Shown here: positions 1,744-34,094 of the stretch, piece after piece
How the letters are laid out: each line of letters starts with the position of its first letter
How positions within the stretch are numbered: the first letter of the stretch is position 1
Assembly (NCBI GenBank): GCA_965209155.1
Contig: OZ242383.1
Location: 4,194,201-4,258,200, forward strand
DNA length: 64,000 bases
DNA from: a bacterium
GTDB taxonomy: Bacteria > SAR324 > NAC60-12
Reading direction: 5' to 3'
Notes under the pieces: generated by a model
What the model was told of the DNA's origin: nothing
Seen by the model: only the letters and a program-made list of their open reading frames with translations
Database searches by the model: none
Made by a program: the position numbers and the translations under genes

Positions 1744-1815
1744 GCATATCGATGAAATTTATAAATGATTCTTATTATACATTAACGCTCGCGGTAGTTT
1801 AATATGCCGAGGAGA

Positions 1816-2754: not shown

Positions 2755-2764
2755 AGAAAGTCCT

Positions 2765-3220: not shown

Positions 3221-3355
3221 TGCTCACCTCTTAAATATGATACTTTACATGACTTTCGGCTCAATAAATATTCGCGAAATTGAAATAAAACCCTCAGCCA
3301 AAAGCGATTTCTTGAAATCTATCAAAAAAGAAAAAGAAAAACCAGCAGAAATTCT

Positions 3356-5240: not shown

Positions 5241-5341
5241 GGGACGGACCTCATCATTTTTGAAATTGGTGTGGAAACGCGGGGTATCCTGGAGTGGAGT
5301 GGGCAGTACTGCCCGCTCCACAAGTGCTTCCAGTCGGCCTA

Positions 5342-7177: not shown

Positions 7178-7205
7178 ATTACCTTTTCTTTCTATTTGTT
7201 TTTGT

Positions 7206-7417
7206 GTAACTATTCAGGTCTCTGAAAAACCCGTTCAGTTAAATATCATTAAAAAGATTCCCGGAGAGGAACGATCGTTTTCAAATCCTCCCACGATATT
7301 GTTCCATTGATCGGGAACCCTCTCTTTCACTAAAACAACTCAGTGAAGGCATGAGTTTAGCACTACTACTACTTGCGCAATGTCAACCCCATATTAAAAA
7401 AAAATGCAGGATTCGTA
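7206..7417. repeat. Left copy of ~212-bp imperfect inverted repeat bounding the 7.2-14.3 kb accessory block
   Basis: Reverse complement of 14068-14282 aligns over ~212 bp at roughly 88-90% identity (begins GTAACTATTCAGGTCTCTGAAAAACCCGTTCAGTTAAATATCATTAAAAAGATTCCCGGAGAGG); outer end is ~29 nt upstream of the SBP start codon. Confidence 0.8.
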
Positions 7418-7660
7418 AAAAAAATGAAAAATCTATCAGTCAGGGAGATCCACGTTCTAAGCGCTCTTGCTTCCATGGCTCTCGTTCTTTTTCAAAGAGT
7501 GGACTGGCTTCTTGAAGAGCCTCGAGGTGGGGAATCGTGGTGAGAAAAGTTGATTTTCTCTGATGTCTGCGACTAATGACCTGGAAAAAGAGGCTGCTTC
7601 CTTGTTGATCCAGGACTTTGTATTTCCCGAGAGACGGAATCATCCGCCTGGCGAATCCTT

Positions 7661-8920
7661 CTAGACATCTTCATCCTTCTCAGTTTCCTGCTCCGATTCA
7701 GGAACTTCTTCATAGCTGACTCTGAATTCGGTTCCCTCTGTTTCGGGGTGTGAATTGGGGTACAAACGCAACAGGTCCCATTCATTTATCGACGCTCGGA
7801 CCTTGTATCTCATCCTGTTTCGATATCCCGCCCCACCTACCATGCTCTTTAATGGTGGGGCTTCCCATCCATAGGCAACGCTGTAGATTTCCCGAAGTTT
7901 TTCGACGGTCGCTTTCACGTCTTCTGCGGTCGGGGGTTCTAGTGCAATAGTCTCCTGCTCAAGGCTCCGCATACCCACTTCAGCTCTGTCCGCAGCGTCA
8001 ATATTTCCACGGGAACGCAAACGGGAACCTGCCGAGTCGAGGTCCCGCTTGCCAGTTAAAATGGCTGTAGCGAAGTCGTCAGTTACCGTGCCAGCAACAA
8101 CCAGTCCTGGACATGCTTTAGCAGAAACCTCTCCCAACCAGAAGGCCAGCTCTGCATAGGAACGAGCTCTTTGAAGTGGTCCATAAGAAGCGACTAATTC
8201 GACTTCGTCTAACAAAACAACCCAACCATTGTAGCCTGCCGCCTTGATCAACTCTGTTGCGAACCGTAGCCGTAGTGGAGGTAATTCTCTCGCTTTCGGC
8301 GCTTTGAAGGGAAAATTCTGTAACTGACCTATTGCTTTGAGGCCATCTTTTACCTTAGCCATCGCAATCCGCTCTCCCGACCAGAACGCTCTGACTTCAT
8401 TAATCAGTTCAAGATCGTTTGTCCTTTCATGGAGCATCAAGGTTGCCGGGAAAACAGGGTGCAGTTGTCCACTTCGATTGGCCCACTGAAAAAAATGCGC
8501 ATAAGCATCTGTTTCCTGTTCAAGACTGAGTCCGATTTCTTCCATAAGCTGCCCGGTTCGGTCTGGTATCCGGCCGTTGTCTATCGCGGATGTGAATACC
8601 TTAGCCTGGTCATAGAGCGGCGTCTCTTTGCTGATAGCTACTCTACTACACACAAAACCCCGCTTCAACGCCAGGTGTTCCAGATAGGAAAGCAGGTGAG
8701 ACTTGCCTGTGCCAAAATCTCCGGAAACCAATATCCCCAAGGAACGGGAAGGAGGATTATCCGGATCCGTACACTTGGCCAAGAGTTCAGTGAACTGACT
8801 TACTACTTGAGACTGACCACATCCCAATCGTTTTACCGATTCCTCATTGGGCACGCCACTCCGCAGGGCTTCCAATGCCTGCCTGCAAGAAAAAGCACTT
8901 TTATCTATATCGGTACCCAT
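7661..8920 (-). CDS. P-loop NTPase of unknown function (third gene of three-gene operon)
   Basis: 419 aa; Walker A GDFGTGKSHLL and Walker B-like VVLLDEVE; acidic C-terminal tail; 16 nt downstream of the preceding ORF. Confidence 0.7.
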   Translation of the reverse strand: MGTDIDKSAFSCRQALEALRSGVPNEESVKRLGCGQSQVVSQFTELLAKCTDPDNPPSRSLGILVSGDFGTGKSHLLSYLEHLALKRGFVCSRVAISKETPLYDQAKVFTSAIDNGRIPDRTGQLMEEIGLSLEQETDAYAHFFQWANRSGQLHPVFPATLMLHERTNDLELINEVRAFWSGERIAMAKVKDGLKAIGQLQNFPFKAPKARELPPLRLRFATELIKAAGYNGWVVLLDEVELVASYGPLQRARSYAELAFWLGEVSAKACPGLVVAGTVTDDFATAILTGKRDLDSAGSRLRSRGNIDAADRAEVGMRSLEQETIALEPPTAEDVKATVEKLREIYSVAYGWEAPPLKSMVGGAGYRNRMRYKVRASINEWDLLRLYPNSHPETEGTEFRVSYEEVPESEQETEKDEDV

Positions 8921-8936
8921 ACGGATTTGTCCCTTC

Positions 8937-9887
8937 TTAAAAGAGTTGCACCAAAGGAGCTATAGGATTCACCAGATTTTTATCCCGAACATCATCCATA
9001 ACTCTTGTCATAAGGGCAGGATAAATACCAAACCCCCGGGAACGAGCATCCTGCTCAAGAAATGCGCCATCCGTCACGATCACAAGTAAAGTACTAACCA
9101 ATTGCTCAGTTCTATCGATTAATTGCCTCAAAAGTTCGTAGTGATCCGTCGTCATGCTTTTAGTGTAGTATCTGAGCCCATCTACCGGATTACGGGCAAG
9201 CGTCACACGGGAATTGTCGAGCAGAATCACGGTTCCTGCATGTCCCGTATACTGGAAATAGTAAAGTGCCGATTCAATGAAATACCTCGCTGTTTTGCGG
9301 TTGATGCTGGTGTAGATCGAAAATGGCCTGACCGCGCCAAGTTTGGCCTCTCCTGTTAGCCAATCAATCAGCGCTTGACCTTCGTAGGATTGATTTCCAC
9401 GGTTGTTCTCGTATCGGCAAAGATGAGTCATAGCAACCCTGAAATCTTTAGTCATACGATATTTTTTGGTAACTTTATTTTCTATTTGAGGTCTCAGCTC
9501 CTGCAGTACGGATTCCAACTCGAGATCATTGACTTCTCCCATAGCCTTATAAATGTTATCGGTTTGATGCGAATCAATGGAATCAACCCGATAGCCAATT
9601 TCCTTGGCCATGCGTAAGAGCAAGCGACGGGCCAATTTCCGCCAGTCAACCTGCTTGGCCATCTCGAAAAAGATGTCTTGGGGCATATGGATTCTGATAT
9701 CTGACGCATCCAGCTTGACAACGACATAATCCTGTTCCTTGCCTCGATTCTCCACTGTTTCATATAAGGTCGGTTTCAAATTTTCCGGGGTCACTGCAAA
9801 TTTTATGGACGCGCCGCCCTGCGGGATGAAAGACGATAAGTATTCGGAATCGATACGTCGCAGCCAATCATGAAGGGATAGGTTCAT
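8937..9887 (-). CDS. Hypothetical protein (second gene of three-gene operon)
   Basis: 316-aa ORF with GGAGG SD ~10 nt upstream; start codon 2 nt from the stop of the upstream ORF; no motif assignable by eye. Confidence 0.6.
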   Translation of the reverse strand: MNLSLHDWLRRIDSEYLSSFIPQGGASIKFAVTPENLKPTLYETVENRGKEQDYVVVKLDASDIRIHMPQDIFFEMAKQVDWRKLARRLLLRMAKEIGYRVDSIDSHQTDNIYKAMGEVNDLELESVLQELRPQIENKVTKKYRMTKDFRVAMTHLCRYENNRGNQSYEGQALIDWLTGEAKLGAVRPFSIYTSINRKTARYFIESALYYFQYTGHAGTVILLDNSRVTLARNPVDGLRYYTKSMTTDHYELLRQLIDRTEQLVSTLLVIVTDGAFLEQDARSRGFGIYPALMTRVMDDVRDKNLVNPIAPLVQLF

Positions 9888-9889
9888 TA

Positions 9890-10681
9890 TTATTTGCCTC
9901 CAATGAATTGGATTCCGTAATATGACACCACTTGCCCGTCGGAACCTACGATGGGAAAACTGCCTCGCGCGCTCCTTGCCAATGTAGAAGAGGGAAAAGC
10001 TACGCGTGCGCCAGACTTTGTACTGGACGGACCATTGATCTCCAAGAAATAAAGGTCCTTTGCAAAATCCAGCTTTTTATAATCATTGCTGGCCCCGGGA
10101 AGAGAGGTGAATGCCTTATAGATTTCCTCTAGAGGTACCACAGGTTCTTTGATTGAAGAACCGACAGAGGAGGGTTTAGCGCAGAGTTTGTAATTAAAGT
10201 ACAAAGCCTCCAAGAAGCGGTCTGAACGAAATCGGGGTGGTTTTTTCTGGTTATTGGTCAGGATGTCAGCAAGGTAAGACGGTCTCAACGTCGATACTTT
10301 TTTCCGATCAATTCTCACTACCTGACTCTCAGGTAAGATTTGAACAATAGACGGGTGAGAAATCAATGCGCCATCTCTTTCATAGAGGTTCAATCCCTTT
10401 CTTTCCGCTGTGTCACATAGCTCGGCAGCATAGTGTTCCTTGAGGTATTCTATCTCTTTTCCATCCTCAAAAGGCCATGTTTCTACCGCGTTTTCCACCT
10501 CCTGCCTTAGAGAACATAGAGCGCTGTTTAACTTTGAAGCAGCCTTTTTTAGTGCGCTGATATCCCCTTTCTTTGCTGCATTCCGTAAAACTCCGGCCAA
10601 CTTTGCAAGTTCTAATGCAGATTTCATTGTTGAATTTGCAGCTTTTTCCGTATCACTGAAGGCCCGTTCAAAGCTCGTCAT
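9890..10681 (-). CDS. Hypothetical protein (first gene of three-gene operon)
   Basis: 263-aa ORF with AAGGGG SD upstream, helical-looking N-terminal half; no recognisable family. Confidence 0.6.
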   Translation of the reverse strand: MTSFERAFSDTEKAANSTMKSALELAKLAGVLRNAAKKGDISALKKAASKLNSALCSLRQEVENAVETWPFEDGKEIEYLKEHYAAELCDTAERKGLNLYERDGALISHPSIVQILPESQVVRIDRKKVSTLRPSYLADILTNNQKKPPRFRSDRFLEALYFNYKLCAKPSSVGSSIKEPVVPLEEIYKAFTSLPGASNDYKKLDFAKDLYFLEINGPSSTKSGARVAFPSSTLARSARGSFPIVGSDGQVVSYYGIQFIGGK

Positions 10682-11604
10682 TATCTACCCCTTTGCTTCC
10701 GTTCATTTTCCCACAACCCAGCCTTGTCATGGTTTGTTGAGTTATAACCTTGATGTCATCTCGACCGCATGGAGAGATCCCAAGATTCCTCACGTTCGTT
10801 CGAAATGACACATTTTTAAATGGGATATAACCTAACGAACCATTACATCTTAGGGACTAAAATAGTGTTTTTTATAACCGTTTTTTGAGAAAATAGGCAA
10901 GCAAAAAAATCAGAAAAAGTTTGACAGTGATTTTTGAATATTTTTTTAACTGTTCATTGATTCAAATTAGCAGTGTTGAATCTTACGCAATCTTTGCTCA
11001 GATTTAAGAACCTGTTTAAAAATTACGTACTGCGTTTTAACATGAGTCGAATCATAGCGATATAGACAATGACTTCAGCAGTGTGAGCATATCTTTCATA
11101 ATCGGTATTTTGTCGATGATACTATCCAAACCAAGAAATGGTTCTTTCCACAATCCATCACAATATGTCGTTTCCGTCCCTTCACCTTTTTTCCTCCTTA
11201 AAACCCCCGGAACCTCGCTGTTTTTCTGCATTTTGATTTTCTCACTCATCTGTCTCCTTTCTCCTTTTCATCAAATTTCCTTGCTCCTATGTCCCTCCAC
11301 AGCTGTTCAAAATTGTCCTGCAATCATTTTATAAGTCTCCACCCGATCTTTCGCATTGATTCTTTCTCGGGATCTGCGTACCTTTTTCATACGATCTCCC
11401 TTCGTTGGGTTAAAGTTTTGCGTGGTCCATGAAACCACAACATAACGAATGTGAGTTCATTTTTCAGTTTTCAACTAATTTTTGGACATTTCCTACCTTT
11501 AGTCCTTCCAGAATATTTTCTTTTGTCAGTTATTTTAAGTCAATAGCTGTTTGGCAATAAAATTGCATGTCTTTTTAATGTCCATTTTTTTAAAAAGGAG
11601 GTAG

Positions 11605-12390: not shown

Positions 12391-12924
12391 TTGTATGCTT
12401 TCATTAGGCGTAACTGCAGAGTCCCGGACTGTTGGGGACTGAAGGATCGTGACCTGATGGGATTGCCTTGGCGAGTAGCATTTGCATTACAAGACGACGG
12501 ATGGTTGCTGCGCTCAAAAATCACCTGGCTGAAGAAAGCTCCTATGCCCGAAAGCGTCAAGAACCGACCGTCAAACGCCACAGAGGAAATCTTTCTGTTC
12601 TCAAAAAGTGCAAAATACTACTACAACAATCAGGCAGTGCGAGAAGAAACCGGCGCCAATCTCCGGAATTACTGGCTGTTGGGGACGGATGCTGGTGACA
12701 AGCTGCATCCCGCCGTTTTTCCAAAAGAATTGGCACGGCGCTGCATAATCTTGGGTAGCCGTCCCGGAGATGTGATTCTTGACCCGTTTTCAGGGTCGGG
12801 AACTACTGGCATAGCAGCGATCGAGTCAAATCGTCGCGTCGTCCTTATTGAATTGAACGAAGAATATGCGACACAATCCGAAACCCGGATAAATAAGGGC
12901 GTACAGCAAACCTTAGCTGTTTAG
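12391..12924 (+). pseudogene. N-truncated DNA methyltransferase (beta-class N6A/N4C type), C-terminal portion only
   Basis: Contains the region preceding motif I (LHPAVFPKELARRCI) and motif I itself (DPFSGSGTT) plus the upstream ITWLKK segment, but the DPPY-type catalytic motif that lies N-terminal in this class is absent. Confidence 0.6.
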
Positions 12925-14354: not shown

Positions 14355-15341
14355 ATGACGGATACGCCACATGCAACTCCTCAAGATCATAATCAGGATA
14401 TGCTTCCTGCAAAGTTCGTTTTGAATAAATACCGGATCATTTTCGTAGCATTAACGCTTGTCGCGGTCGGCCTCGCCGCATGCGGCGGTGGAAAATCAGG
14501 ATCGGATCCCCTTAGTAGCCTTGAAAGCATCAGAGAACTGACTGGCATGACGGCACCGGTAGAGAAGCCCGCGGCGCAAAAAGCACGAGCACCAGGTATT
14601 GCCTCGCGATCCGACTCTCTGATCATCTCTACGACGTACGTGGAAACGAGCGACGATGAACTTCCCACTTTTAGCTTCGGGGCGCAGTGCGCCGGTACTC
14701 GGTGCACGATATCGGAGCCCAGGATCGGATACGTCAGGACCGTTACCCTGTCTGAACTCGAGACCATAACCCTGTCTGAACTCGAGATCGTGGACGGCTC
14801 TCCTGAAGCAGTTGGAACCAAGCACGGCATCACCCTGATGTCGGTAACCGGCCGGCGCATGGACGATGAGTTCACTACGTTTGGAGCATGGATGGCGCAT
14901 GGCGGGTTTCAGGTTGAGACCGCGCGTGTGGTAATCCCGGATGATATCAGGATGAACCTCGTCTCCGGCCTCGCTTTGGGTGATCTCACGGGCAGCCGTC
15001 CAAGAGGGAGCGCAACGTGGATCGGTCTTATGGTTGGAACGCCTGCCACAGGGGATAACCTCGGAGACAGGCTGCAGGGAGATGCGGCCTTGAACTACGA
15101 CATGAGCGCCGGCGGTGGGCTCGACGTCGGTTTCAGCAGTATCAAGAACATCGACCGTGGCACGGCGCACACGACATCCACAGTGCTATTCGCAGACGTT
15201 CCAATCAGTTCGAGTGGGACGTTTGAAGCAGGCCATGCTGGCAACCGCATCCAGGGCGGTTTCTACGGTCCTGATCACATTGAGGCTGCTGGAATTTTCG
15301 AGCAGTCAAACATCGTCGGAGCCTTCGGAGCAAAACGATGA
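14355..15341 (+). CDS. Surface lipoprotein with TbpB-like C-terminal beta-barrel (handle) domain
   Basis: Lipobox (VAVGLAACGGG) after a signal peptide; C-terminus NRIQGGFYGPDHIEAAGIFEQSNIVGAFGAKR matches the terminal motif of transferrin-binding-protein-B-like lipoproteins. Confidence 0.55.
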   Translation: MTDTPHATPQDHNQDMLPAKFVLNKYRIIFVALTLVAVGLAACGGGKSGSDPLSSLESIRELTGMTAPVEKPAAQKARAPGIASRSDSLIISTTYVETSDDELPTFSFGAQCAGTRCTISEPRIGYVRTVTLSELETITLSELEIVDGSPEAVGTKHGITLMSVTGRRMDDEFTTFGAWMAHGGFQVETARVVIPDDIRMNLVSGLALGDLTGSRPRGSATWIGLMVGTPATGDNLGDRLQGDAALNYDMSAGGGLDVGFSSIKNIDRGTAHTTSTVLFADVPISSSGTFEAGHAGNRIQGGFYGPDHIEAAGIFEQSNIVGAFGAKR

Positions 15342-15498: not shown

Positions 15499-15885
15499 TC
15501 AGTCTTTGTTTTGTTTTTCAAGATAGCGCTGAATCTCTTCCAGAGAAATCCGTTTGAGGATCTCAACGGGCGAAAGTCCTTTCAGGCGATCATCGGCCGA
15601 AAAGCGTTTGAGGACTTCATCAGTCGAAAAGCGTTTGAGGACCTCATCGGTCGAAAGCACACCCAAATGATCACGCACATAATCTTTTTGAAAATCTTCC
15701 ATCGTATAGGCCATCTCTAATCCCTCCAATTGATAGTTCTCAAAGAGTTGATTTAATATCGTACTGATTTCCCGGGTATGCCCTCGGTATTGACGCGAGG
15801 CAAATTCCACTTCTCCGGGAATGCCACTGAATAAATGCCAAATCGCATTATGCTCCGCATGAGCGATCTCACTCAGTACAATCAT
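15499..15885 (-). CDS. Hypothetical protein with tandem TDEVLKRFS-type repeats, possibly a gene fragment
   Basis: 128-aa ORF; ~30-bp tandem coding repeats at about 15540-15690; reading frame stays open upstream of the first Met, suggesting truncation. Confidence 0.3.
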   Translation of the reverse strand: MIVLSEIAHAEHNAIWHLFSGIPGEVEFASRQYRGHTREISTILNQLFENYQLEGLEMAYTMEDFQKDYVRDHLGVLSTDEVLKRFSTDEVLKRFSADDRLKGLSPVEILKRISLEEIQRYLEKQNKD

Positions 15886-16140
15886 CCGAATGAGATCACT
15901 CCCCCGCTGAATCTCATATGAAAGCGTTCTGGCTAGAAAGTTTGGAAAAGTAGCGTTTTTTTCTTATTCAAATCGATTTTACTTTCCTTTTCGCTTGTTT
16001 CTGAAAATGGCTCGTCAACCACGCCTTTACTATCCTGGCGCGCTTTAGCATGTGAATCTTCGTGGCCATGGAGGGCAAACCTTTTTTTCTGTCCTTCCTA
16101 CTATCGACAATTTTATCACTTGCTCCCAGATGGTTCCCAA

Positions 16141-16640
16141 TGCTTTGATCACCGGATTCACGCCTTTTGCTTAATGAGCAATCGTGTTCCTCCCTACTCT
16201 CTTCCTCTTTGAAGACAGATCATTCATCAAATGGATCGAGTTTATCAACTACCGGAGAATGAATTAACCCGAGTTCGACATAAATCTTCAATAATAGGAG
16301 TATTCTGGCGTTTATGTCTTTCCGGGCGCAGACCCGAAATCCAGATTTCAGTCTGGCTGCATACCTCTGGATTCCTGGTCAAGCCAGGAATGACACGTTT
16401 TCTCTACAGTCACGAAAGTCGAGTGAAGCCCGCGCGATGATTAGCCTGTTGGCTGTCGATTGGAAGTCCGCCACTATTCGAGTAGTCGGAAAATTTTAAA
16501 TTGAGATGATTTGACGATCAGCTTTGCTATGCACCAGTTGCGACAACGATTGAAGGAATCCGAGGGTCTCCAAATTCAATTAGAGGAACTAAAACGTCAA
16601 ATACTTGCTTGAAGTTTCAAACTTTCAGGCCTGACTCCTT
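16141..16640 (+). repeat. Dispersed ~500-bp repeat, element X copy 1
   Basis: Near-identical to 18060-18556 and, over its 3-prime ~240 bp, to 21961-22200; contains an embedded REP-like hairpin unit. Confidence 0.75.
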
Positions 16641-16833
16641 TTTTTTCACTCCTATAAAGAATTTCATAAGGTGAAGTAGATGTCTGGCCTATGTAGTTCT
16701 GAAAACCGCCGTTATAGCCCATGTAAAAATTCCCGTCCAAATCGCTTGAGTAACCGGGGCGACTGTCTTTCTCAACTCGCTTTTGGTTGTCTACAAAATC
16801 GGACTGTATTTTTATTTCTCGTTTCTTCGCCAT
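16597..16833 (-). CDS. Small hypothetical protein
   Basis: 78-aa ORF with AAGGGAAAG SD, just downstream of the lipoprotein gene; last codons run into element X. Confidence 0.3.
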   Translation of the reverse strand: MAKKREIKIQSDFVDNQKRVEKDSRPGYSSDLDGNFYMGYNGGFQNYIGQTSTSPYEILYRSEKKGVRPESLKLQASI

Positions 16834-16868
16834 AACACTTTCCCTTTCAATCAGAAAATAAATCTAAA

Positions 16869-17591
16869 TCAATTCTCTTTCATAGCTTTCCAACGCTTAA
16901 AAACAAAATCCACCATAAATTTATGAATCTCATATCCTCCATAATAATCATCTCTTAATTTTTGTACCATCGCAACATTAGGAGTCACAAAATTAGAAAG
17001 GTATAACTCATCAAAACGATCCAAATTTATACGATCCACAACAACTTTAATGATAGTATGTTGTTGATTGGACCCTGATAATAACACTAATTGATCATAA
17101 CCATAAGAATCTCTTCTAATATCAAAGCTAATAAAATCCAAAGAGATTAATTCTTCTTCACGTACTAAACTGATAAGTTCCTTCCACTCTCGATCATAAT
17201 AATATGCCCCTAATCCACAACGCTTATTCACATTATCACTCCATCGAGCCACTATTATCACTCTTGAATCATCAGGATATTTTTTCTCTTCGTAAAACCT
17301 TGAATGATAACCCATTATAGGTTGACCAGAAACATCATATTCCTCAATCTGTATCACGCAACCTTCAGGAAAAACTCGCTCAATTTTTTCAAAAAAAGTT
17401 AACTCCATATCAGGTTCAATTTCTGCCTCGACCACCTCAGGTAATACAGGAACTACCACTGAATCTTTGACAGTAGGAATTTGCTGAATACCATCATCCA
17501 CTTGAACACCAGCAACCGGAGCAGTCTCTTGAACCGGCATCGCACAACCAAACAAAAAGACCACTACAAATAACAAATAAAAAATTCTCAT
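16869..17591 (-). CDS. Hypothetical lipoprotein
   Basis: 240 aa; signal peptide with lipobox (FLFGCAM); AT-rich codon usage typical of this island. Confidence 0.55.
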   Translation of the reverse strand: MRIFYLLFVVVFLFGCAMPVQETAPVAGVQVDDGIQQIPTVKDSVVVPVLPEVVEAEIEPDMELTFFEKIERVFPEGCVIQIEEYDVSGQPIMGYHSRFYEEKKYPDDSRVIIVARWSDNVNKRCGLGAYYYDREWKELISLVREEELISLDFISFDIRRDSYGYDQLVLLSGSNQQHTIIKVVVDRINLDRFDELYLSNFVTPNVAMVQKLRDDYYGGYEIHKFMVDFVFKRWKAMKEN

Positions 17592-17642
17592 AAAACTCCT
17601 GTTATCGTACCATTAATAAAAAGGGATTTGTAGGCCATGTGA

Positions 17643-17990
17643 TCAATCATCAATAAACTCCCAACAAGTTGTGTTCGTTACTGCTTCAAATACATCACAA
17701 GCAAGTATTCTTGATGAACCGCCTTTATCATCTTCAATACTTAAATGATACTCTTCTCCATTCTTACATTTAACTGCAATATATAATGCAGCAGTATTCC
17801 AATCAATCCTTCTTATAAAATATTTCGTTACTGCACAAGAGACCCCAGACGCTGGACTAGCGAGCATAGTTAGAAATCGAATTTATTCTTTTTCGCTATC
17901 TCCATAAATTTGATAAAACCAGCGATTTGCATGAATTTGAGAAAACGATAATAAAATTGAAATCAACAGATAACAAATAATCTTTTTCAT
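17643..17990 (-). pseudogene. Secreted-protein gene interrupted by an in-frame TAA stop
   Basis: A 35-codon ORF starting at ~17990 encodes a signal peptide (MKKIICYLLISILLSFSQIHA) and is in the same frame as ORF 17643..17867, separated by a single TAA. Confidence 0.4.
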
Positions 17991-18009
17991 AACACATTCT
18001 AAAGGAACT

Positions 18010-18556
18010 GAAACGTCCAATACCTACTTGAAGTTTCAAACTTTCAGGCCTGACTCCTTTTTCATTATCACCGGATTCACGCTTTTTACTTAATGAGCAA
18101 TCATGTTCCTCCCTGCTCTCTTCCTCTTTGAGGACGGATCATTCATCAAGAGGCTCGAGTTTATCAACTACCGGAGAATGAATTAACCCGAGTTCGACAT
18201 AAATCTTCAATAATAGGAGTATCCTGGCGTTTATGTCATTCCGGGCGAAGACCCGGAATCCAGGTTTCAGTCTGGCTGCATACCTCTGGATTCCTGGTCA
18301 AGCCTGGAATGACACGTTTTCTCTGCAGTCACGAAAGTCGAGTGAAGCCCGCGCGATGATTGACCTGTTGGCATTCGATTGGAAGTCCGCAACAATTCGG
18401 GAGGTCGGAAACGTTTTCAATCGAGATGATTAAACGATTAGGTTTGGAGTGCACCGCTTGAGACCACGATTGAAGGAATCCGAAAGTCTCCAAATTCAAT
18501 TAGAGGAACTGAAACATCAAATACTTGCTTGAAGTTCCAAACTTTCAAACCAGACC
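18010..18556 (+). repeat. Dispersed repeat, element X copy 2 (with tail of an additional copy at its 5-prime end)
   Basis: Aligns with 16141-16640 along nearly the full length; the tail motif CTTGAAGTTTCAAACTTTCAGGCCTGACTCC is present at both ends. Confidence 0.75.
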
Positions 18557-18713
18557 TTGGTACTCACCAATCCCCGCGATATCTGACCGGGTGGAACGAT
18601 ATTCCTTCATCCGGCATTATTTCCAATTTATTTAAATGTTCCTATTATTGAATCAGTCTTTTTATCATAGACCTCAATTGTAGTTGCCAAAATAAACATT
18701 CTGAAATTTTCAT

Positions 18714-19040
18714 CTAATTCACTTCACCTGATAAAATAATTATACAATCATTACTACTGAATAGTCCTGAACGGCAATTTTTATTAAAATAATCCATAAA
18801 ATTTTTTCGGCCAATTCGGCTTAATATATCGGCACTTGCTCGAAGTGTATATCCATCAGATTGTACATCAAAATAATCATTTACTGATAATTTATCAGCA
18901 AAATAACTTGTTGTTCCTGCAAATTTAATCTCGTATCCTATTGACGCAAAATCAAAGGTATAGTCCTTTAATGTGGTTCTAAAAGGTTCGGCTTGAATAA
19001 TATTTACAAAAATTAAACCGATTAAAATATTTAAAGACAA
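18714..19040 (-). CDS. Small secreted hypothetical protein
   Basis: 108 aa with N-terminal signal peptide (MSLNILIGLIFVNIIQA). Confidence 0.45.
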   Translation of the reverse strand: MSLNILIGLIFVNIIQAEPFRTTLKDYTFDFASIGYEIKFAGTTSYFADKLSVNDYFDVQSDGYTLRASADILSRIGRKNFMDYFNKNCRSGLFSSNDCIIILSGEVN

Positions 19041-19104
19041 ATAAACGTTTCATATTGTATTCTCCATATTGAAGGTATTTCAAAATCGATCCAAAATTAT
19101 CAAT

Positions 19105-19455
19105 TCAAACTGAGATTGATTCTTTTTTTTTCTTAGGTTCAATTATTGCCAGGACACCACCTATAAAAGCTAAAACCATAAAAATCGCTACTATCGTACC
19201 ACCTAAAATTGCACCTACAATCGCACAAAGACATGTTATAATTCCCGGGATTCGGCTGTTTGAAGTTAAAGTAATTGCTCCCATAACTATGGTAAGAAAA
19301 GAAAAGAGAACTCCACCCCAGCCGAGACCGATTACTGTATTCGCCCCTTCCGCTTGAAAGGCACCGCCTATTCCACCTATGAATAAAGTTGCACCGGCAG
19401 CAAATACACTGAAAATACCTGCAATTATTGCAATAATTCCTCCTGCTTTTCTCAT
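19105..19455 (-). CDS. Glycine-rich small integral membrane protein
   Basis: 116 aa, three to four hydrophobic segments rich in small-xxx-small glycine motifs, lysine-rich C-terminal tail. Confidence 0.5.
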   Translation of the reverse strand: MRKAGGIIAIIAGIFSVFAAGATLFIGGIGGAFQAEGANTVIGLGWGGVLFSFLTIVMGAITLTSNSRIPGIITCLCAIVGAILGGTIVAIFMVLAFIGGVLAIIEPKKKKESISV

Positions 19456-19525
19456 ATCATCTCCTTTCTGTTATTTTTGCGTCAATAGAATCCATTCGAT
19501 TCTGCCAGAAGTTCTACTTCACGAA

Positions 19526-19822
19526 TTATTTTCTCCTTTTGAAATCTTCTTTGATGACCCGGAACACGTATCTCATCTCGTCCTCAGACTTTTTCCCGAA
19601 ACGTTTTGCCATCCTGTAACCGAGATTAGTCCACGTCAATTTTTTTAATGCCAGTTTCCCAATTTCTTTTTTATTTAAAATTAGATTATTCCAAGAAAAA
19701 ATAAAATTTTCTAAATGCTTATTAGTTGGATTTTTGTTCGTAACATCCTTTACAAACTCTTTATCCAAAGCCAAGCGTTCCAGTTCAGCCAACACTTGCA
19801 GGTGAGTCACTTCTCGATTCAA
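19526..19822 (-). CDS. Small protein, member of local paralog family (LTW-x-LGY-x-M motif)
   Basis: 98 aa; shares a conserved C-terminal core with ORFs 20760..21020 and 21020..21286; a fragment of its 5-prime end is repeated at ~20490-20600. Confidence 0.5.
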   Translation of the reverse strand: MNREVTHLQVLAELERLALDKEFVKDVTNKNPTNKHLENFIFSWNNLILNKKEIGKLALKKLTWTNLGYRMAKRFGKKSEDEMRYVFRVIKEDFKRRK

Positions 19823-19834
19823 TTTGACCTCTTT

Positions 19835-20326
19835 TCACAATTCATTTTTTACTATTTCCTGAATAATTTTTTTAAATCTCTTAAATTCAATCTTTAATTC
19901 TTGTATAGTTTTATCTAATTCAACCATGTTCTTTCTGGAATTCATTTTAAATTCTTCATACGTCATATCAGGATCATATGTAGGTGATAATCGGACACTA
20001 ATAAAAAGAAGAACAAATGAACAAATAAAAACAACAAATGCTCGCTTTCGAGTTGGCAAGTACAAACGAGAAATGGGGTACAACATACAAATAAACGATA
20101 TTATACTAATGATCATAAAGACAAATACTAAAATAATACTTATTTCTTCCATTGTAGGTGGTAATTGGACACTAATAAAAAAAAGAACAAATGAACAAAT
20201 AAAAACAACAAATGCCCGCTTTCGAGTTGGCAAGTACAAACGAGAAATGGGGTACAACATACAAATAAACGATATTATACCAATGATCATACAGACAAAT
20301 ACTAAAATAATGCTTATTTCTTCCAT
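19835..20326 (-). CDS. Membrane protein with internal tandem duplication
   Basis: 163 aa; a ~58-aa unit with a transmembrane helix (MEEISIILVFV...RKRAFVVFICSFVL) occurs twice, from a direct ~186-bp DNA tandem repeat; opposite-strand ORF 19926..20594 judged a shadow. Confidence 0.45.
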   Translation of the reverse strand: MEEISIILVFVCMIIGIISFICMLYPISRLYLPTRKRAFVVFICSFVLFFISVQLPPTMEEISIILVFVFMIISIISFICMLYPISRLYLPTRKRAFVVFICSFVLLFISVRLSPTYDPDMTYEEFKMNSRKNMVELDKTIQELKIEFKRFKKIIQEIVKNEL

Positions 20327-20759
20327 AAATTACCTGTTTTTATTACAACCTAAATTGAGCGATTCTTTTCAAGAAATGGATTTTTCAGATGATTATTGTG
20401 CCCAAGGAATCGAATCATTGAGATATAAGCATTTGATCATCAAATTCATGGAAGTTCGGGTCAGAATGGATCTCAAGTTGATGTTTTCGGCTGTGGGGAA
20501 ACTTCATTTCTCATGCTATGCACACACTCATCCTCAGCCAGGCGTTCCAGTTCAGCCAACACTTGCAGGTGAGTCACTTTTCGATGCATTTTGACCTCTT
20601 TTCACAATTCATTTATTAGTATTTCCTGAATAATCTTTGCTTCACGGCATTCTTTATCTCGTGTTACTTCTTCCAAGCGCTTTAATTCTTTTATCGTGGA
20701 GACAGCGAAAATGACTTATTTCCCGGTGAATTTGAATTCCGTTCTTTTCAGGTATATAT

Positions 20760-21020
20760 TCATGATTTATCTGAATATTCATCAGCCAGGATGCGATAGG
20801 CATAGTCAATGTCTTCCGGATCTTGAGTTTTAAAATACCTGCCCATTTCGTAACCCAGACTGATCCACGTAATATAATTTAAATCAACCGTATCCAATCT
20901 TTTCCCTTTCCAGCCATCACGGAATGCTGATTGTTTATCCTCCGTAGGTGGCTCACGATTATCGGCAAATTTTTCCTCTTGTAATTCCCGAAGACGATTT
21001 AATACATTTTGATATCTCAT
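20760..21020 (-). CDS. Small protein, paralog family member
   Basis: 86 aa; NLTWxSLGYEMG...DPEDIDY...RILADEY core shared with its tandem neighbour. Confidence 0.5.
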   Translation of the reverse strand: MRYQNVLNRLRELQEEKFADNREPPTEDKQSAFRDGWKGKRLDTVDLNYITWISLGYEMGRYFKTQDPEDIDYAYRILADEYSDKS

Positions 21021-21286
21021 TATTCCCTATTATTTTTTGAATATTCATCAGCCAGGATGCGATAGACATAGTCAATATCTTCCGGATCTTGAGTTTTAAA
21101 ATACTTGCCCATTTCGTAACCCAGACTTTTCCACGTGAGGTTATTCGGATTTAATCTTGATATTCCTTTTCCAAACCATGCTTGTCGAAATGCTGATTGT
21201 TTATGCTCCGTAGGTGGCTCACGCTTTTCGACAGGCTTTTCCTCTTTTAATTCCTGAAGACGATTTAAGATTTCTGAATATTTCAT
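21020..21286 (-). CDS. Small protein, paralog family member
   Basis: 88 aa; tandem with 20760..21020, overlapping stop/start (translational coupling). Confidence 0.5.
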   Translation of the reverse strand: MKYSEILNRLQELKEEKPVEKREPPTEHKQSAFRQAWFGKGISRLNPNNLTWKSLGYEMGKYFKTQDPEDIDYVYRILADEYSKNNRE

Positions 21287-21383
21287 AATTCTCCTTTATC
21301 TTTAAGATTTTTCCTTAGGATTTTAAGCAGATATAAAACGTTTTGATATCTGCTTGGTACTCCTTAGAATTAAGATTTGAATA

Positions 21384-21700
21384 TAAAAAAACACTTGAAA
21401 AAATTTGCAAAAGGAGATTGAGCTGGGTTAGTATTTTTGATTGCCGAAAGGAGGATATAAAAAAAGCCCGTCTTCCCTCATGGGAAAATTCTTGAAAAAC
21501 ATTGCCGTGTTTCTCAAGGATATGATGGGTGTCCTGCTCCTCCTTTGGCCTTCTTGCTTTCCTGTCATTTCCTCCCTTTCATCGATGACCGGGCGGCCAA
21601 CTCACTGGGTCTTTCCCTTTTTACCAGGTTATCGATGACGCCAGCAAACTTGGTTTCCGTGTTGGTGAACCTTTTGTTAAGGAAAAAGAAGTTAAGAAAT
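21384..21700 (+). repeat. Dispersed ~320-bp repeat, element Y copy 1 (promoter-like)
   Basis: Shares with 22915-23250 and 25317-25650 a TTGCAA-N17-TAGTAT-like motif followed by an 11-bp inverted repeat CCAAAGGAGGA ... TCCTCCTTTGG about 85 nt apart. Confidence 0.65.
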
Positions 21701-21960
21701 CTGGTTCAATTTATCTTTCAGATCCGATACCTGTTCCGATGAAATTGGAATTGAAAATTCCCCATAAGGAATATTTGACATGGGTACAGGATGAGAGAGT
21801 GGCTTCCTGGGCCGAATCAAAAGCATTTTAGAATTTTCTTCATCTTCTTTAATACTGACATCTGCTTCAAATTTAACATTCAACGTTACTTGTGAATTTT
21901 TATCCATATTTATCTTCTTTTTTTTTGAAATCGATATTGATTAATTTTTCTCTGTACTTT

Positions 21961-22200
21961 TGAAGGAGTTGAGTAAAACCCGCACGATGATTGGCTCGTT
22001 GGCTTTCGATTGGAAGTCCGCAACGATTTGGGAGATCAAAAAATTTGCAATCGAGATGATTCTATGATCAGCATTGGAATTCGTCGGTTGAGACCAAGAT
22101 TGAAGGAATCCGAGGGTCTCCAATTTCAATTAGAGAAACTGAAACGTCAAATACTTGCTTGAAGTTTCAAACTTTCTGGCCTGCCCCCTTTTCAATATGA
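21961..22200 (+). repeat. Element X copy 3 (3-prime ~240 bp only)
   Basis: Aligns with the 3-prime half of 16141-16640. Confidence 0.65.
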
Positions 22201-22213
22201 AAACTAAAGAGAT

Positions 22214-22891
22214 TTAAAGACCTGTAATGAATAGAATGAAATAACCATCATATTTAATTAATTTTTCAATTCCATAAGTAGGGATGCCTATAGTAAAATC
22301 AGAACGAACCTCCATAGAATTTGTTTGAGTAGGAACGTCATTAATATAAACACCAAAATAACCGATTGATAGAGGTCTTTCATACGGAATTATTTTGAAT
22401 CGGATTTTAAAATCTGATAATTGAATAAATGATGCAGCAGATGATTCAAAAAAACTTTCCATTTTCACACGTAGTTCGGGGGGGAAATGTAAACCTAGCG
22501 TCCTAACGCCTTCATCATTAGGGAAATAAGTAATATTAATTATTTCTTCATCAACATATTTACCATCCCTTTCTTTATCTAAAAAAGCGGGAATCGAAAA
22601 AGAGACCATATGTTTAAATAGTCCTTTTTCTTCACATCCTAAATATTCTGCCCCTTTGAAAATAAAAGGAATTTTTGCTTGTAATTCAAAAACTGTATCT
22701 TCTGGCAAATTACTTTTGCTCTTAGTACATCCCTGAACTTCAATATTCATAATTCCATTAACCTCTATCGGATCTGTCCCTTCTTTAGCAAAATTAGCGA
22801 GGTCGATTTCCATAAATAAATCTAGATCACAACCTGAAATCAAAACTACAATTAATAACAAACCCAATATGCTGAAAATTGACTTTTTCAT
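22214..22891 (-). CDS. Hypothetical lipoprotein (paralog of 23258..23911)
   Basis: ORF 22214..22903 trimmed to MKKSIFSILGLLLIVVLISGC (lipobox); GGAG SD upstream. Confidence 0.55.
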   Translation of the reverse strand: MKKSIFSILGLLLIVVLISGCDLDLFMEIDLANFAKEGTDPIEVNGIMNIEVQGCTKSKSNLPEDTVFELQAKIPFIFKGAEYLGCEEKGLFKHMVSFSIPAFLDKERDGKYVDEEIINITYFPNDEGVRTLGLHFPPELRVKMESFFESSAASFIQLSDFKIRFKIIPYERPLSIGYFGVYINDVPTQTNSMEVRSDFTIGIPTYGIEKLIKYDGYFILFITGL

Positions 22892-22914
22892 ATCAAACTC
22901 CAAATATAATTTAT

Positions 22915-23250
22915 CAAATAATACTTAAAAAGTTTGCAAAACAGGATTGACAGGGTTAGTATTTTTGGTTGCCAAAGGAGGAAATAAAAAAGCCCGTCCT
23001 CCCTCTTTGGGAATTTCTTGAAAAACATTGCCGTGTTTCTCAAGGATATGATGGGTGTCCTGCTCCTCCTTTGGCCTTCTTGCTATCCTGTCATTTCCTT
23101 CCTTTCCTTAAAGACCGGGCGGTAAACTCACCGTGTCTTTCCCTGTTTACCAGGTTATCGATGTTGCCAGCAAACTTGGCTTCCATCTTTGTAAATCTTT
23201 CGCAATCTCTTCCGCTTTCCGATGAATCATTTCAGAAATTTTCTGTCATT
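22915..23250 (+). repeat. Element Y copy 2
   Basis: See 21384-21700; lies between the two paralogous lipoprotein genes. Confidence 0.65.
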
Positions 23251-23257
23251 GAAATTG

Positions 23258-23911
23258 TTAAAAATTGTATGATTGAGTACTGAATACGACAAATTCCTTC
23301 ATTTCATTTGATAACAAAACCCTTGTCCCGTAATGGGGTATTCTTACAGAGAACTCAGAATTCAGTGTAGTATCTATAAATTGGTATGGTTTATCATTCA
23401 AATACACTCCCATTCCTTTTACATTCAATGGAGTCAAATCGGGTAAGATTTGGAATTTTATATTAATATCATCCATTTTTATTTCATCAGACGCAGATAT
23501 TAACAAATTCAATTTCCCTTTTAATCCTGGAGGAAATGAAAAAATTAATTCTCTTTCACCATTTTCAAGTTTAAAATATTCTAAATTTGATATTTCATCA
23601 TCCACTGGTTTGTCATTGTCATTATTATCAATATAAACTGGAATTTCAAATAACAAGTAATAGTCAAAACCCGAACGATCACAATCCTCATATTTTGCCC
23701 ATTTGAAGACATAAAGTAATTGTTCTTTTAATTTACTGACATCATCACTATCACACACATTAACTTCCACTGCCAATCGACCTTTTATAAGAGTTGATTT
23801 ACCATCATCAGTAAATAGATTGAGATTAACTGGTATATCAATAAAAATATCACAACTGGCTATAACTAAAGATATTACTAGTAATTTTATACAACAAACA
23901 ATCTTCCTCAT
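23258..23911 (-). CDS. Hypothetical lipoprotein (paralog of 22214..22891)
   Basis: ORF 23258..23956 trimmed to MRKIVCCIKLLVISLVIASC (lipobox); shares domain order and several motifs with the neighbouring lipoprotein. Confidence 0.5.
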   Translation of the reverse strand: MRKIVCCIKLLVISLVIASCDIFIDIPVNLNLFTDDGKSTLIKGRLAVEVNVCDSDDVSKLKEQLLYVFKWAKYEDCDRSGFDYYLLFEIPVYIDNNDNDKPVDDEISNLEYFKLENGERELIFSFPPGLKGKLNLLISASDEIKMDDINIKFQILPDLTPLNVKGMGVYLNDKPYQFIDTTLNSEFSVRIPHYGTRVLLSNEMKEFVVFSTQSYNF

Positions 23912-24106
23912 AAGACATTCTCCATGAAAATAATTGCAAATGAATATGGTCAGCATAGTAAAAATTGAAATTGTTCTTGAAGCTATTCAATTTGAAGAAA
24001 AAATTATTTTTGGCTGAGCTGCTTGAAATCGGATTCGCCCAACGTTTAGCTTCAATTGTTTTTTTTTGGAAAAATCCCCAGCTCAATCAACAAACTATCA
24101 TCTCCT

Positions 24107-25159
24107 CTAAGACGAATGCATTTGCCAAGCAAGCATCAACTGCAATGCGCGCTTCTGCAAAACCGGATCTTTAGGAGCTTTTATCCTTCCTTCAGAATCA
24201 AATACAATTCCTAATGATGGATATTGAAAAAATCTCTCCAAATCTGGATCAAAATCAGGCTTAAGATCGCCTTTATAACCATCCCACAGGACCAAAGGCG
24301 GTAGATCCGCGTTCAATTCAAGCTCCGTCCACATGGGCGAGTGATCGCTCACCCCCGACTTCCGGTATTTGTGGCAGTAACCGCAGGCTTTGAGATCGAA
24401 ATGTCTCGATACGAAAGTGTGGTCGTAACATTTCGGAGAGCCTTTTGTGACGTGGGTGACTGGGGTTCTGGCAAAACCGTGGAGAGCGCGATAGGCGTCG
24501 CGCAGACCATGCCGTGATGCGCCGGCGAGGACGGAACGCACAGGGTCGTCCCATTCCTTACCCGAACCCCTGCGACCGTAACCGTCTGCCCATTCTTTGC
24601 AAAGGTATGGGACCCCATTTTTGTCTATATTTTCGCCCCAAGTCACAACCTGTCCGGAACTGCGAAATTCTCGCGGCTCATTGAAATCACCGGTCAGGAT
24701 TCGTGGCGAGTCGTTCCCCTCGCGAAGCGCCGCCAACAAGACGTTGAAGGTGTCGATTTTCGACCAGCCATTGCCGGAACCATTGGGGATGTGGACCGTG
24801 AAGAGCTCGACGTCTCCCTCCGGTAGTTCGATCATCGCTCGCCCCAGTATCTCCGGGTAAGGCGCACCCTTGCGCCATGTATCGTCGACAGGACTTAATG
24901 GCCACTTGCTCGCGATGAGACATTGATATTTCTTCTTATACTTAATCAGCCATTTTGGATTATCAGGCGCATCTTTGCCGCTGTTCAAGGAGTGTTTGAG
25001 TCCAAGTCCGGCGAGGCACTTCGCCATCTCATCCGCGAGCTCCGACTTGACCTCCTGCAATGTGACCAGGTCCGGCTTTACGGCGCCAATGGCTTTAACA
25101 ACCAGATGTAAGTTTTTAGGCAAGGTATTAAATTTAACGTTCCAGGAAAGTAGTCTCAT
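24107..25159 (-). CDS. Endonuclease/exonuclease/phosphatase (EEP) family protein
   Basis: 350 aa; EEP-type N-terminus (LLSWNVKFNT...DLVTLQEV) and conserved C-terminal SDHSP; ~100-aa C-terminal extension of unknown function. Confidence 0.6.
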   Translation of the reverse strand: MRLLSWNVKFNTLPKNLHLVVKAIGAVKPDLVTLQEVKSELADEMAKCLAGLGLKHSLNSGKDAPDNPKWLIKYKKKYQCLIASKWPLSPVDDTWRKGAPYPEILGRAMIELPEGDVELFTVHIPNGSGNGWSKIDTFNVLLAALREGNDSPRILTGDFNEPREFRSSGQVVTWGENIDKNGVPYLCKEWADGYGRRGSGKEWDDPVRSVLAGASRHGLRDAYRALHGFARTPVTHVTKGSPKCYDHTFVSRHFDLKACGYCHKYRKSGVSDHSPMWTELELNADLPPLVLWDGYKGDLKPDFDPDLERFFQYPSLGIVFDSEGRIKAPKDPVLQKRALQLMLAWQMHSS

Positions 25160-25316: not shown

Positions 25317-25650
25317 TATAAAAAGTTTGCAAAACAGGATTGAGAGGGTTAGTATTCTTGGTTGCCAAAGGAGGAAATAAAAAAGCCCGTCCTCCCTCAT
25401 GGGGAAATTCTTGAAAAACATTGCCGTGTTTCTCAAGGATATGATGGGTGTGCTGCTCCTCCTTTGGCCTTCCTATTATCCTGTCATGCCTTTCCTTTCA
25501 TTGAAGACTGGGTGCCAAACTCATCTGGTTTTGATCTGGTTGCCAGGTTATTGATGAGGCCAGCCAACCTGATTTCAATGTTGGCGAAGCTTTTGTTTGA
25601 GGTTTTGTCACCTGGTCCCATATTGTCAAACTTGTCACCCAATCGTCGGA
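25317..25650 (+). repeat. Element Y copy 3
   Basis: See 21384-21700; located upstream of and divergent from the EEP gene. Confidence 0.65.
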
Positions 25651-26189: not shown

Positions 26190-26650
26190 ATGTCATTCCT
26201 GTGCAAGTGGGAATCCAGGGAATCGAAATGACCCCTGGATTCCGGGTCTTCGCAAGGAATGACACATTCTTGGATTCGGGGTCTTCGCCTGGAATGACAT
26301 CCTCCTGGATTAGCGGTATTCGTTTGGAAAGACACGTTCATGGATTCCTGGTCTGTGCAAGGAATGACACATTCTTGGATTACTGGTCTGTGCCAGGAAT
26401 GACACATTCTTGGATTACTGGTCTTCGCCAGGAATGACACATTCTTGGTGTGGTGTTTTTCGCTTGGAATGACACGTTCCTGGATTACTGGTCTTCGCCA
26501 GGATTGACATCCTCCTGGATTAGTGGTATTCGCCAGGAATAACACATTCTTGGATTAGTGGTATTCGTTTGTAATGACATGTTCCTGGATTTCTGGTCTT
26601 CGCAAGGAATGACACGTTCCTGGATTCCTGATCTGTGCAAGGAATGACAA
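26190..26650 (+). repeat. Tandem array of ~12 REP-like 35-bp hairpin units
   Basis: Contiguous degenerate units of consensus TGGATTCCGGGTCTTCGCCAGGAATGACACATTCT, each with an internal inverted repeat; no unique spacers. Confidence 0.8.
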
Positions 26651-33853: not shown

Positions 33854-34075
33854 GTCATTCCTGGCTTGACCAGGAATCCAGTGTTGGTAAGGATTTCCTG
33901 GATTCCGGGTCTGCGCCAGGAATGACACACTCCTGGATTCCCGATTGCAGGGGCCAGGACATTTTCGTTCCCCTGGATTCCGGGTCTGGGCCAGGAATGA
34001 CTCACTCTTAGATTCCTGGTCTGCGCCAGGAATGACTCACTCTTGGATTCCGGGTCTGGGCCAGGAATGATACTC
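33854..34075. repeat. Tandem array of REP-like hairpin units (about 6 units, mixed orientation)
   Basis: Units such as GTCATTCCTGGCTTGACCAGGAATCCAG and CTGGATTCCGGGTCTGCGCCAGGAATGAC. Confidence 0.8.
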
Positions 34076-34094
34076 TCCCGAAAACGTCCTTTAC

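Follow-up and report, generated by a model that had tools for sequence, protein, structure and literature searches.

The 64,000-nucleotide stretch analysed here, hereafter the window, comes from a bacterium of the SAR324 lineage (GTDB NAC60-12; contig OZ242383.1, positions 4,194,201 to 4,258,200). At a fixed chromosomal spot beside the genes for a U32 peptidase, PfkB, ClpX, ClpP and trigger factor, it carries an AT-rich block whose left and right edges are sharp and lie at about 16.8 and 24.0 kb, respectively. The block encodes lipoproteins, small membrane and secreted proteins and short cytoplasmic proteins; the genes are co-oriented and arranged as modules parted by two island-specific linker repeats, termed R1 and R2, and the gene for an EEP-family protein lies at its right edge (Table 1). 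An identical ClpP is present on one Tara Oceans contig, and the lineage is therefore probably marine.

An AT-rich block whose strain breakpoints fall on repeats

A sequence-only reading of the window had described this block as an accessory island set off by a sharp drop in GC content from flanks of about 55%. The drop is real, with a GC fraction of 0.350 (35.0%) for positions 16644-24106 against 0.518 (51.8%) for the core (positions 1-7000 together with 26700-64000), in which 1-kb windows have a standard deviation of 0.028 and a minimum of 0.453. The 1-kb profile runs at 0.33-0.39 between 17 and 24 kb, at 0.40-0.49 between 7 and 17 kb and at 0.50-0.58 in the core, and the immediate left flank (7-16.6 kb) is a zone of intermediate GC, 0.456, rather than one of about 55%. 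GC at third codon positions (GC3) is 0.17-0.40 in the island genes versus 0.62-0.64 in those for the U32 peptidase, PfkB and ClpX, such that the block displays both the deviant base composition and the deviant codon usage of a horizontally acquired island. As had also been read, every credible island gene in the list of open reading frames (ORFs) lies on the minus strand. The EEP gene is host-like in composition (GC 0.514, GC3 0.567), which places it outside the AT-rich block.

The same site was recovered through protein look-ups in five related metagenomic contigs or contig groups (L001/L005/L019, L006/L020, L008, L018 and L002), whose core genes are about 98% identical to those of the window. 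Four of these (L001, L006, L008 and L018) share with it, at 90-95% aligned, the succession of U32 gene, 35-nt tandem array, R2, EEP gene, first DUF7424 lipoprotein gene (DUF7424#1) and R2; L002, a contig of just 2.1 kb, has DUF7424#1 running into a truncated R2 and a gene of the 88-aa type, and nothing else of the array. The slot after this shared part is filled by the second DUF7424 gene (DUF7424#2) in the window and by a gene for a ~225-aa lipoprotein in the four other strains (L001, L006 and L018, as well as L008, where it is split in two), with extra genes for 146-aa and 109-aa proteins in L001 and for a DUF4234 protein in L006 and L008. L001, L006 and L008 then rejoin the order of the window at R1c, followed by the 71-aa gene, R2 and the ~90-aa genes, while L018, from which the 71-aa gene is absent, rejoins at a partial R2. 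L001 additionally has a duplicated unit of 71-aa gene, R2 and 98-aa gene, a GmrSD gene and an insertion sequence (IS) element, and L018 lacks the 163-aa gene, the junction lying exactly at the 109-nt D9 repeat. The EEP and DUF7424#1 genes are truncated or frameshifted in L001 and L008. From one close relative to the next, the same modules thus recur in different combinations and orders, and vary in copy number and truncation, and the breakpoints between strains fall on R2, R1 and D9. Gene content differs at the same site in all five related contigs, which makes the block accessory and strain-variable; uniform conservation and core-like composition, which the sequence-only reading had named as fatal to itself, are the opposite of what is observed, and the foreign composition combined with presence/absence polymorphism among close relatives supports the horizontal acquisition that it had suggested.

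Between strains, synonymous divergence (dS) is 0.09-0.31 in island genes versus 0.02-0.085 in core genes (2-6x), which suggests that the island alleles are older than the core divergence and were imported from more distant lineages. Most island genes are under purifying selection, with ratios of nonsynonymous to synonymous divergence (dN/dS) of 0.04-0.46 (Table 1). Accordingly, the description of the locus as rapidly diversifying applies to the turnover of its gene content and not to the sequences of most of its genes.

Table 1. Genes and repeats of the island and its edges, in order of position in the window, with dN/dS between strains where calculated
Feature	Position	Strand	Remarks	dN/dS
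R1a	15987..16643	+	Transposase-like gene remnant; start MARQPRLYYPGAL; several frameshifts and stops; repeat families D3, D4, D5	
Doubtful 78-aa ORF	16597..16833	-	Runs into the D5 repeat; no Pfam family	
240-aa putative lipoprotein	16869..17591	-	Signal peptide; atypical lipobox FLFG-C; no family match	
Small secreted-protein gene, interrupted	17643..17990	-	MKKIICYLLISILLSFSQIHA...; in-frame TAA	
Solo D5 end (18000-18062), then R1b (18067-18563)	18000..18563	+		
Small secreted-protein gene	18714..19053	-	108-aa ORF with hydrophobic signal segment	
116-aa glycine-rich membrane protein	19105..19455	-	Four predicted helices (four hydrophobic segments)	0.04-0.08
98-aa stand-alone copy of the nuclease-associated domain	19526..19822	-	Divergent paralog	0.5-0.6
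163-aa membrane protein	19835..20326	-	Internal 174-nt tandem duplication, 95-96% identity	
D9 repeat	20530..20638	-	109 nt; remnant of the 5' end of the 98-aa gene and its upstream region; 92% identical to 19763-19871	
Tandem 86-aa (20760-21020) and 88-aa (21020-21286) copies of the nuclease-associated domain	20760..21286	-	66% identity	88-aa: above 1, on very few changes
R2c	21400..21674		Structured inter-cassette repeat	
71-aa cytoplasmic protein	21692..21907	-	No signal peptide, no membrane segment; conserved in four of the five related strains	0.08-0.15
R1c	21967..22193	+	3' part of R1 only, D5 end included	
DUF7424 lipoprotein #2	22214..22891	-	225 aa; PF24199, E 1e-21; lipobox; slot compared between strains	
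R2b	22926..23200		Reference copy	
DUF7424 lipoprotein #1	23258..23911	-	217 aa; in all five related strains; truncated in L001, frameshifted in L008	0.10-0.34
EEP-family (Exo_endo_phos) protein	24107..25159	-	350 aa; PF03372, 55.3 bits	0.38-0.46
R2a	25319..25593		Bounds the repeat-linked array on the right, upstream of the EEP gene	

R2, with a length of about 275 nt, is present in 3-4 copies per strain, always between modules, and has no copy elsewhere in the 309 kb examined, which include the other 57 kb of the window and the core flanks of the related contigs. Across an alignment of 13 copies, mean identity is 93% in a core of about 125 nt and falls to 81% in the tail and to 71% in the left part. 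The reference copy R2b folds with a predicted -97.4 kcal/mol (z-scores of -7.25 on the plus and -4.1 on the minus strand), and the consensus is a long, branched hairpin; on the plus strand it includes at least nine G.U pairs, and only one pair covaries. A long, imperfect palindrome that extends over about 165 nt, with GCCAAAGGAGGA / TCCTCCTTTGGC as part of it, gives R2 the terminal inverted repeats of a miniature inverted-repeat transposable element; neither the many dispersed copies nor the target-site duplications of such elements were seen in the 64 kb of its own genome and the related contigs, and no target-site duplication is evident in the 13-copy alignment. The pair TTGCAA-17-TAGTAT stands on the plus strand just before the conserved core in 10 of the 13 copies. 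The window has no Rfam match at gathering thresholds, and none, R2 included, up to an E-value of 1; a 24-nt pattern from the R2 core likewise found no match in the species-genome or JGI metagenome collections. The element is similar to ERIC, Correia/NEMIS and REP/BIME elements in being intergenic, a few hundred bases long and a long imperfect palindrome, in that it would be co-transcribed with its neighbors, and in that recombination between copies rearranges the intervening DNA. It is unlike them in that its core is more conserved than its ends and that no target-site duplication is seen; being confined to the island, it is also not dispersed as they are.

A small plus-strand ORF (MGKFLKNIAVFLKDMMGVLLLLWPS...) runs across the R2 core in 11 of the 13 copies (window positions 21437-21569, 22965-23095 and 25358-25487), and a GGAGGA upstream of it is predicted to pair with a TCCTCC inside it; this ORF is probably not coding. 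A type I toxin gene was discarded as its identity because it is lost in two of the 13 copies, lacks a full membrane helix and has its ribosome-binding site 24 nt from the ATG. A sigma-54 promoter in R2 was also set aside, the spacing being wrong on reading the sequence, and a scan for promoters and terminators gave nothing above chance.

R1 (about 500 nt) corresponds to the 3' two-thirds of a decayed plus-strand gene, the 3' part of which is present in 3-4 copies per strain, all inside the island and none elsewhere in the same 309 kb. R1a, which marks the left edge of the AT-rich block, holds an embedded 35-nt REP-like unit and the 63-nt end D5 (16581-16643). The stitched translation of R1 shows 36% identity over 84 aa to the annotated transposase of a Rhodospirillum rubrum plasmid, with the HIH of that protein's HUH-like motif aligning to R-V-P in R1. 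It has no Pfam or PDB match, so the identification as a transposase is moderate at best, and neither the intact HUH motif nor the Y1_Tnp domain of IS200/IS605 or RAYT transposases was recovered. Related 35- or 43-nt hairpin units (consensus about CCTGGATT.CGGGTCT.CGCCAGGAATGACAC) form intergenic tandem arrays at 26234-26649 (about 12 copies), 33896-34078 and 43831-44041, and occur singly inside R1 at 16314-16400 and 18233-18320; they look REP-type, which would fit R1 as what is left of a REP-associated transposase gene. The repeats and gene fragments that had been noted by eye as interspersed in the block are genuine.

Envelope proteins and flanking genes

The two DUF7424 proteins match Pfam PF24199 with E-values of 4e-30 and 1e-21 (105.5 and 77.7 bits; gathering threshold 27), display the classic lipoboxes VIAS-C and LISG-C, and are paralogs (32% identity, E 3e-32). 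An AlphaFold model of DUF7424 (pLDDT 79, pTM 0.77) consists mainly of beta strands with few helices. The family is rare, with one match in 185,579 species genomes (Veronia pacifica) and one short contig in the JGI metagenomes, and we found no known function and no literature for it. A tblastn search with DUF7424#2 against 50,697 phage and 72,556 plasmid records returned no match, as did one with a member of the ~90-aa family discussed below. Distant DUF7424 homologs adjoin HicA/HicB and IS21 genes (L003) or a GmrSD_C gene (L004). The Veronia pacifica homolog (L009; strain CAIM 1920, NZ_LYBM01000011.1, positions 7200-11400) is one of four small lipoprotein genes on the same strand, separated by their own families of repeated intergenic elements, with GNAT and Nudix genes nearby and no integron integrase within 10 kb; this layout parallels that of the present island in a distant phylum.

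The 240-aa protein is unrelated to the DUF7424 pair, and falls, as a divergent member, into the family of ~225-aa lipoproteins encoded right after DUF7424#1 and R2 in the four relatives, being 34-36% identical to the products of L001 10981-11658, L006 14391-15182 and L018 18084-18758; unlike these, it is encoded at the far end of the island. The three lipoproteins recognized by eye, two of them paralogous, are therefore upheld, the lipobox of the 240-aa protein being atypical. The same holds for the glycine-zipper and the duplicated membrane proteins, which correspond to the 116-aa (with a weak DUF4064 match, below the cut-off) and 163-aa products, respectively. The small secreted protein fares less evenly: a signal segment is present in the 108-aa ORF, but the ATG at 19053, which a GGAG precedes by 9 nt, is shifted by one base from the frame of this ORF, which implies either a frameshift or a TTG start. 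A second secreted-protein gene, to be added to the single one noted by eye, is the interrupted one at 17643..17990, which reads as a 35-aa and a 74-aa ORF with two ATGs 123 nt apart in the same frame, and is likely a pseudogene. The claim that all products are exported or membrane-bound does not hold, since the three ~90-aa proteins and the 71-aa protein have neither signal peptide nor membrane segment.

The intermediate-GC zone to the left contains two adjacent BrxC/BrxD-like ATPase ORFs (7661-9887), which may be a single gene that has been split, together with a truncated gene for an N6_N4 DNA methylase (12391-12924); the left edge of this zone differs in L001, which has a gene for a 1701-aa DEAD/UvrD helicase there. 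A plus-strand lipoprotein-like ORF at 14355-15341 (GC 0.56), with a weak match to the TbpB C-lobe (E 6e-5, below the cut-off), differs from the island genes in both strand and composition. A minus-strand 128-aa ORF without a family match (15499-15885), which has a 27-nt tandem repeat (15545-15656) coding for the repeated peptide STDEVLKRF, borders the left end of R1a.

A nuclease-associated domain and the EEP protein

The 88-, 86- and 98-aa proteins are homologous (66% and 29% identity), in agreement with the sequence-only reading; however, they are not three tandem copies, because the 98-aa copy is set apart from the other two by the 163-aa gene. All three are cytoplasmic and retain an intact shared motif, D.R.PPD..RRGQFR.GW ... 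LTW.NLGYR.G..FG, and the AlphaFold model of the domain is helical (pLDDT 94.6), with no counterpart in Pfam and no relative in the PDB. A three-sequence profile recovered 116 cluster representatives from 1.84 billion proteins, 53 of them stand-alone and 43 with the domain at the N-terminus followed by a C-terminal extension. Pfam domains in 51 long members are predominantly of the HNH type (27/51: HNH in 17, HNH_2 in nine and HNH_5 in one), alongside EVE in two and one each of MrcB_N, AAA_5, PLDc_2/RE_NgoFVII, NOV_C and Exo_endo_phos. One member (P0127) has an NCBIfam McrB match at 5.5e-52, and restriction-enzyme models in PADLOC and NCBIfam pick up the HNH parts of the fusions. The charge of the domain is uninformative (pI 4.8 to 10).

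A small N-terminal domain joined to an HNH or other nuclease is the architecture of modification-dependent restriction enzymes (PMC6765204, PMC7897488). Type IV restriction endonucleases such as the EVE-HNH enzyme VcaM4I, McrA and McrBC combine a sensor domain with a nuclease domain (PMC6765204, PMC7897488), and in the homologs of the ~90-aa proteins, similarly, the small N-terminal domain precedes a nuclease of the HNH, PLD, NOV_C or EEP type or an McrB GTPase, with an EVE domain also present in some. These fusions point to DNA-directed defence rather than to toxin-immunity, and the ~90-aa domain would probably serve such a nuclease as a partner or regulator that binds DNA or senses its modification.

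The EEP-family protein matches PF03372 above the gathering threshold of 24.5 bits (residues 4-273 against profile positions 1-225) and has weak similarity to exonuclease III, in keeping with the earlier suggestion that it could be a nuclease, which we retain as a prediction. The EEP portion of P0068, a protein in which the ~90-aa domain is fused at the N-terminus to EEP, falls in the same subfamily (37% identity to the EEP protein of the window over 285 aa, E 7e-59); by the logic of a "Rosetta stone", this fusion would link the EEP gene at the island edge to the ~90-aa genes inside. The EEP protein of the window begins directly with its catalytic domain and the ~90-aa domain is encoded separately, so sensor and nuclease are not combined in one polypeptide here. 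ORFs of 63-67 aa after the 98-aa paralog in three sister strains (L001 15299-15490; L006 17275-17466 and 17478-17681; L008 6509-6700) are similar to the EEP protein's C-terminal tail (pairwise E 4e-8); none was seen in the window.

Interpretation of the locus

Taking these observations together, we favor the view that the AT-rich block is part of a hypervariable accessory island whose modules are reshuffled at repeats, within a wider variable zone that also holds defence genes. Homologous recombination at R1, R2 and D9, both within the genome and with DNA taken up from related strains, would swap, duplicate and delete modules without a dedicated recombinase. The cargo would be of two sorts: a DNA-directed module comprising the predicted EEP nuclease and the stand-alone ~90-aa domains, and envelope proteins (DUF7424, the ~225/240-aa lipoproteins and small membrane proteins) that may face phages or competitors at the surface. 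The context includes the BrxC/D-like ATPases and methylase fragment at 7.6-13 kb and the GmrSD gene inside the L001 island, and the coexistence of decaying genes with others under purifying selection fits an island that is being turned over. Hypervariable and defence islands share with this locus a fixed site beside core genes, foreign composition, content that differs between close relatives, restriction-type genes nearby (BrxC/D-like ATPases, methylase fragment, sister-strain GmrSD) and mobile-element debris. The present island differs from them in lacking, as far as our searches detected, an integrase, a tRNA or flanking direct repeats, in encoding mostly small envelope proteins rather than recognized defence systems, and in having its modules delimited by two island-specific repeats.

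Several observations weigh against this view. The window contains no intact mobility enzyme, only decayed transposase-like remnants, so the recombination mechanism is drawn from the breakpoints only; no integrase or XerD-like recombinase was found with Pfam among ORFs of at least 150 aa at 7-27 kb, there is no tRNA gene in the 64-kb window, and insertion at a tRNA and flanking direct repeats were likewise not found. The strong structure and conserved core of R2 suggest a role beyond supplying homology. It may be no more than a recombination substrate, may act in transcript processing or termination, or may encode an antisense RNA. No PADLOC or NCBIfam model convincingly matches any island protein, and the distant DUF7424 homologs (L003, L004, L009, L024) have no other island family nearby; as judged by gene neighborhoods, the island is a collection and not one conserved operon. 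For the EEP and ~90-aa genes in particular, stand-alone homologs in other genomes have no constant nuclease neighbor, the two lie 3-5 kb apart and are unlike in GC, and EEP is broken in L001 and L008 while the small genes persist, all of which renders a strict two-part system doubtful. That these genes form a DNA-directed defence module is put forward as a tentative possibility, more probably wrong than right. We assign a small chance to a more elaborate scheme, in which R2 would be a functional unit that delimits, regulates or mobilizes cassettes in a recombinase-free exchange locus, through a small antisense RNA from TTGCAA-17-TAGTAT or as a single-strand DNA site, and the ~90-aa proteins would represent a novel type of sensor for DNA or its modification, acting in trans with EEP in a restriction-like defence divided between separate proteins.

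Immunity proteins against periplasm-acting effectors are commonly exported lipoproteins, and the presence of such lipoproteins here, along with content that varies between strains, raises the prospect of an orphan-immunity island, in which acquired periplasmic lipoproteins and small membrane proteins would protect against competitors' toxins. The rAID-1 clusters of Bacteroidales are of this kind, with co-oriented genes, low GC and repetitive intergenic sequences as hallmarks (Ross et al., bioRxiv 10.1101/471110), and the present array reproduces all three together with the strain-variable content. It departs from them in having no 5' XerD-like recombinase, no detected similarity to immunity genes, and much longer repeats (275 and ~500 nt). 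The sequence-only reading, which had leaned to a toxin-immunity-type locus while recognizing no toxin domain by eye, was right on the latter point, in that Pfam, NCBIfam and PADLOC found no toxin or immunity family in the island proteins and no structural match emerged; on the former it is not sustained, as neither toxin genes nor genes of a secretion system turned up in the vicinity of the island and the cytoplasmic ~90-aa family is tied to restriction-type nucleases. We regard orphan immunity as improbable. A niche-adaptive envelope island without a defence role, serving adhesion, nutrient capture or antigenic variation and with the nuclease-related genes as hitch-hikers, is a little less so, though still unlikely: lipoproteins and membrane proteins take up most of the coding capacity, the glycine-rich protein and DUF7424#1 are under purifying selection, the Veronia pacifica homolog sits in a same-strand array of small lipoproteins, and a TbpB-like lipoprotein is encoded nearby, but specific envelope roles find no support in any functional annotation, defence genes abound in the surroundings and two secreted-protein genes are disrupted in the present strain.

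Decay is nevertheless conspicuous, with an in-frame stop, a frameshift, a gene remnant, an internal duplication, decayed transposase-like copies, and EEP and DUF7424#1 broken in some strains, and one could view the whole as foreign DNA and mobile-element debris, probably silenced and without current function. The low dN/dS of the glycine-rich and 71-aa proteins (0.04-0.15) and of DUF7424#1 (0.10-0.34), the ~90-aa motif preserved in all three copies and the better conservation of the R2 core than of its flanks make this highly improbable. Least credible to us is an integron-type cassette array that lacks its integrase, or a prophage remnant with moron genes, despite the short co-oriented genes, mostly of unknown function, that are parted by hairpin-forming repeats and are AT-rich as morons are. 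The attC sites of integrons are hairpins of 57-141 nt with RYYYAAC ... GTTRRRY ends after each cassette, whereas R2 has 275 nt and no such ends. A crude fold-assisted attC scan found no site in 15.8-26.8 kb; of its two controls, it recovered an aadA7 attC and missed a VCR. IntI and other integrases are absent from the ORFs surveyed, the searches with DUF7424#2 and a ~90-aa family member found no homolog in the phage and plasmid records, there was no structural match to viral proteins, and the window has no tRNA gene.

As a hypervariable accessory island, the locus is a familiar kind of object, and its worth lies in offering a clean natural case of module reshuffling at defined repeats in near-identical genomes with no visible recombinase. 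R2 is an island-specific structured repeat and a candidate structured RNA or DNA site outside all curated families. The more useful product is the ~90-aa nuclease-associated helical domain, undescribed hitherto and without a Pfam model, which recurs as the N-terminal part of HNH, PLD, EEP and McrB-type enzymes and, sharing the architecture of modification-dependent restriction enzymes, is a candidate new sensor of DNA or its modification.

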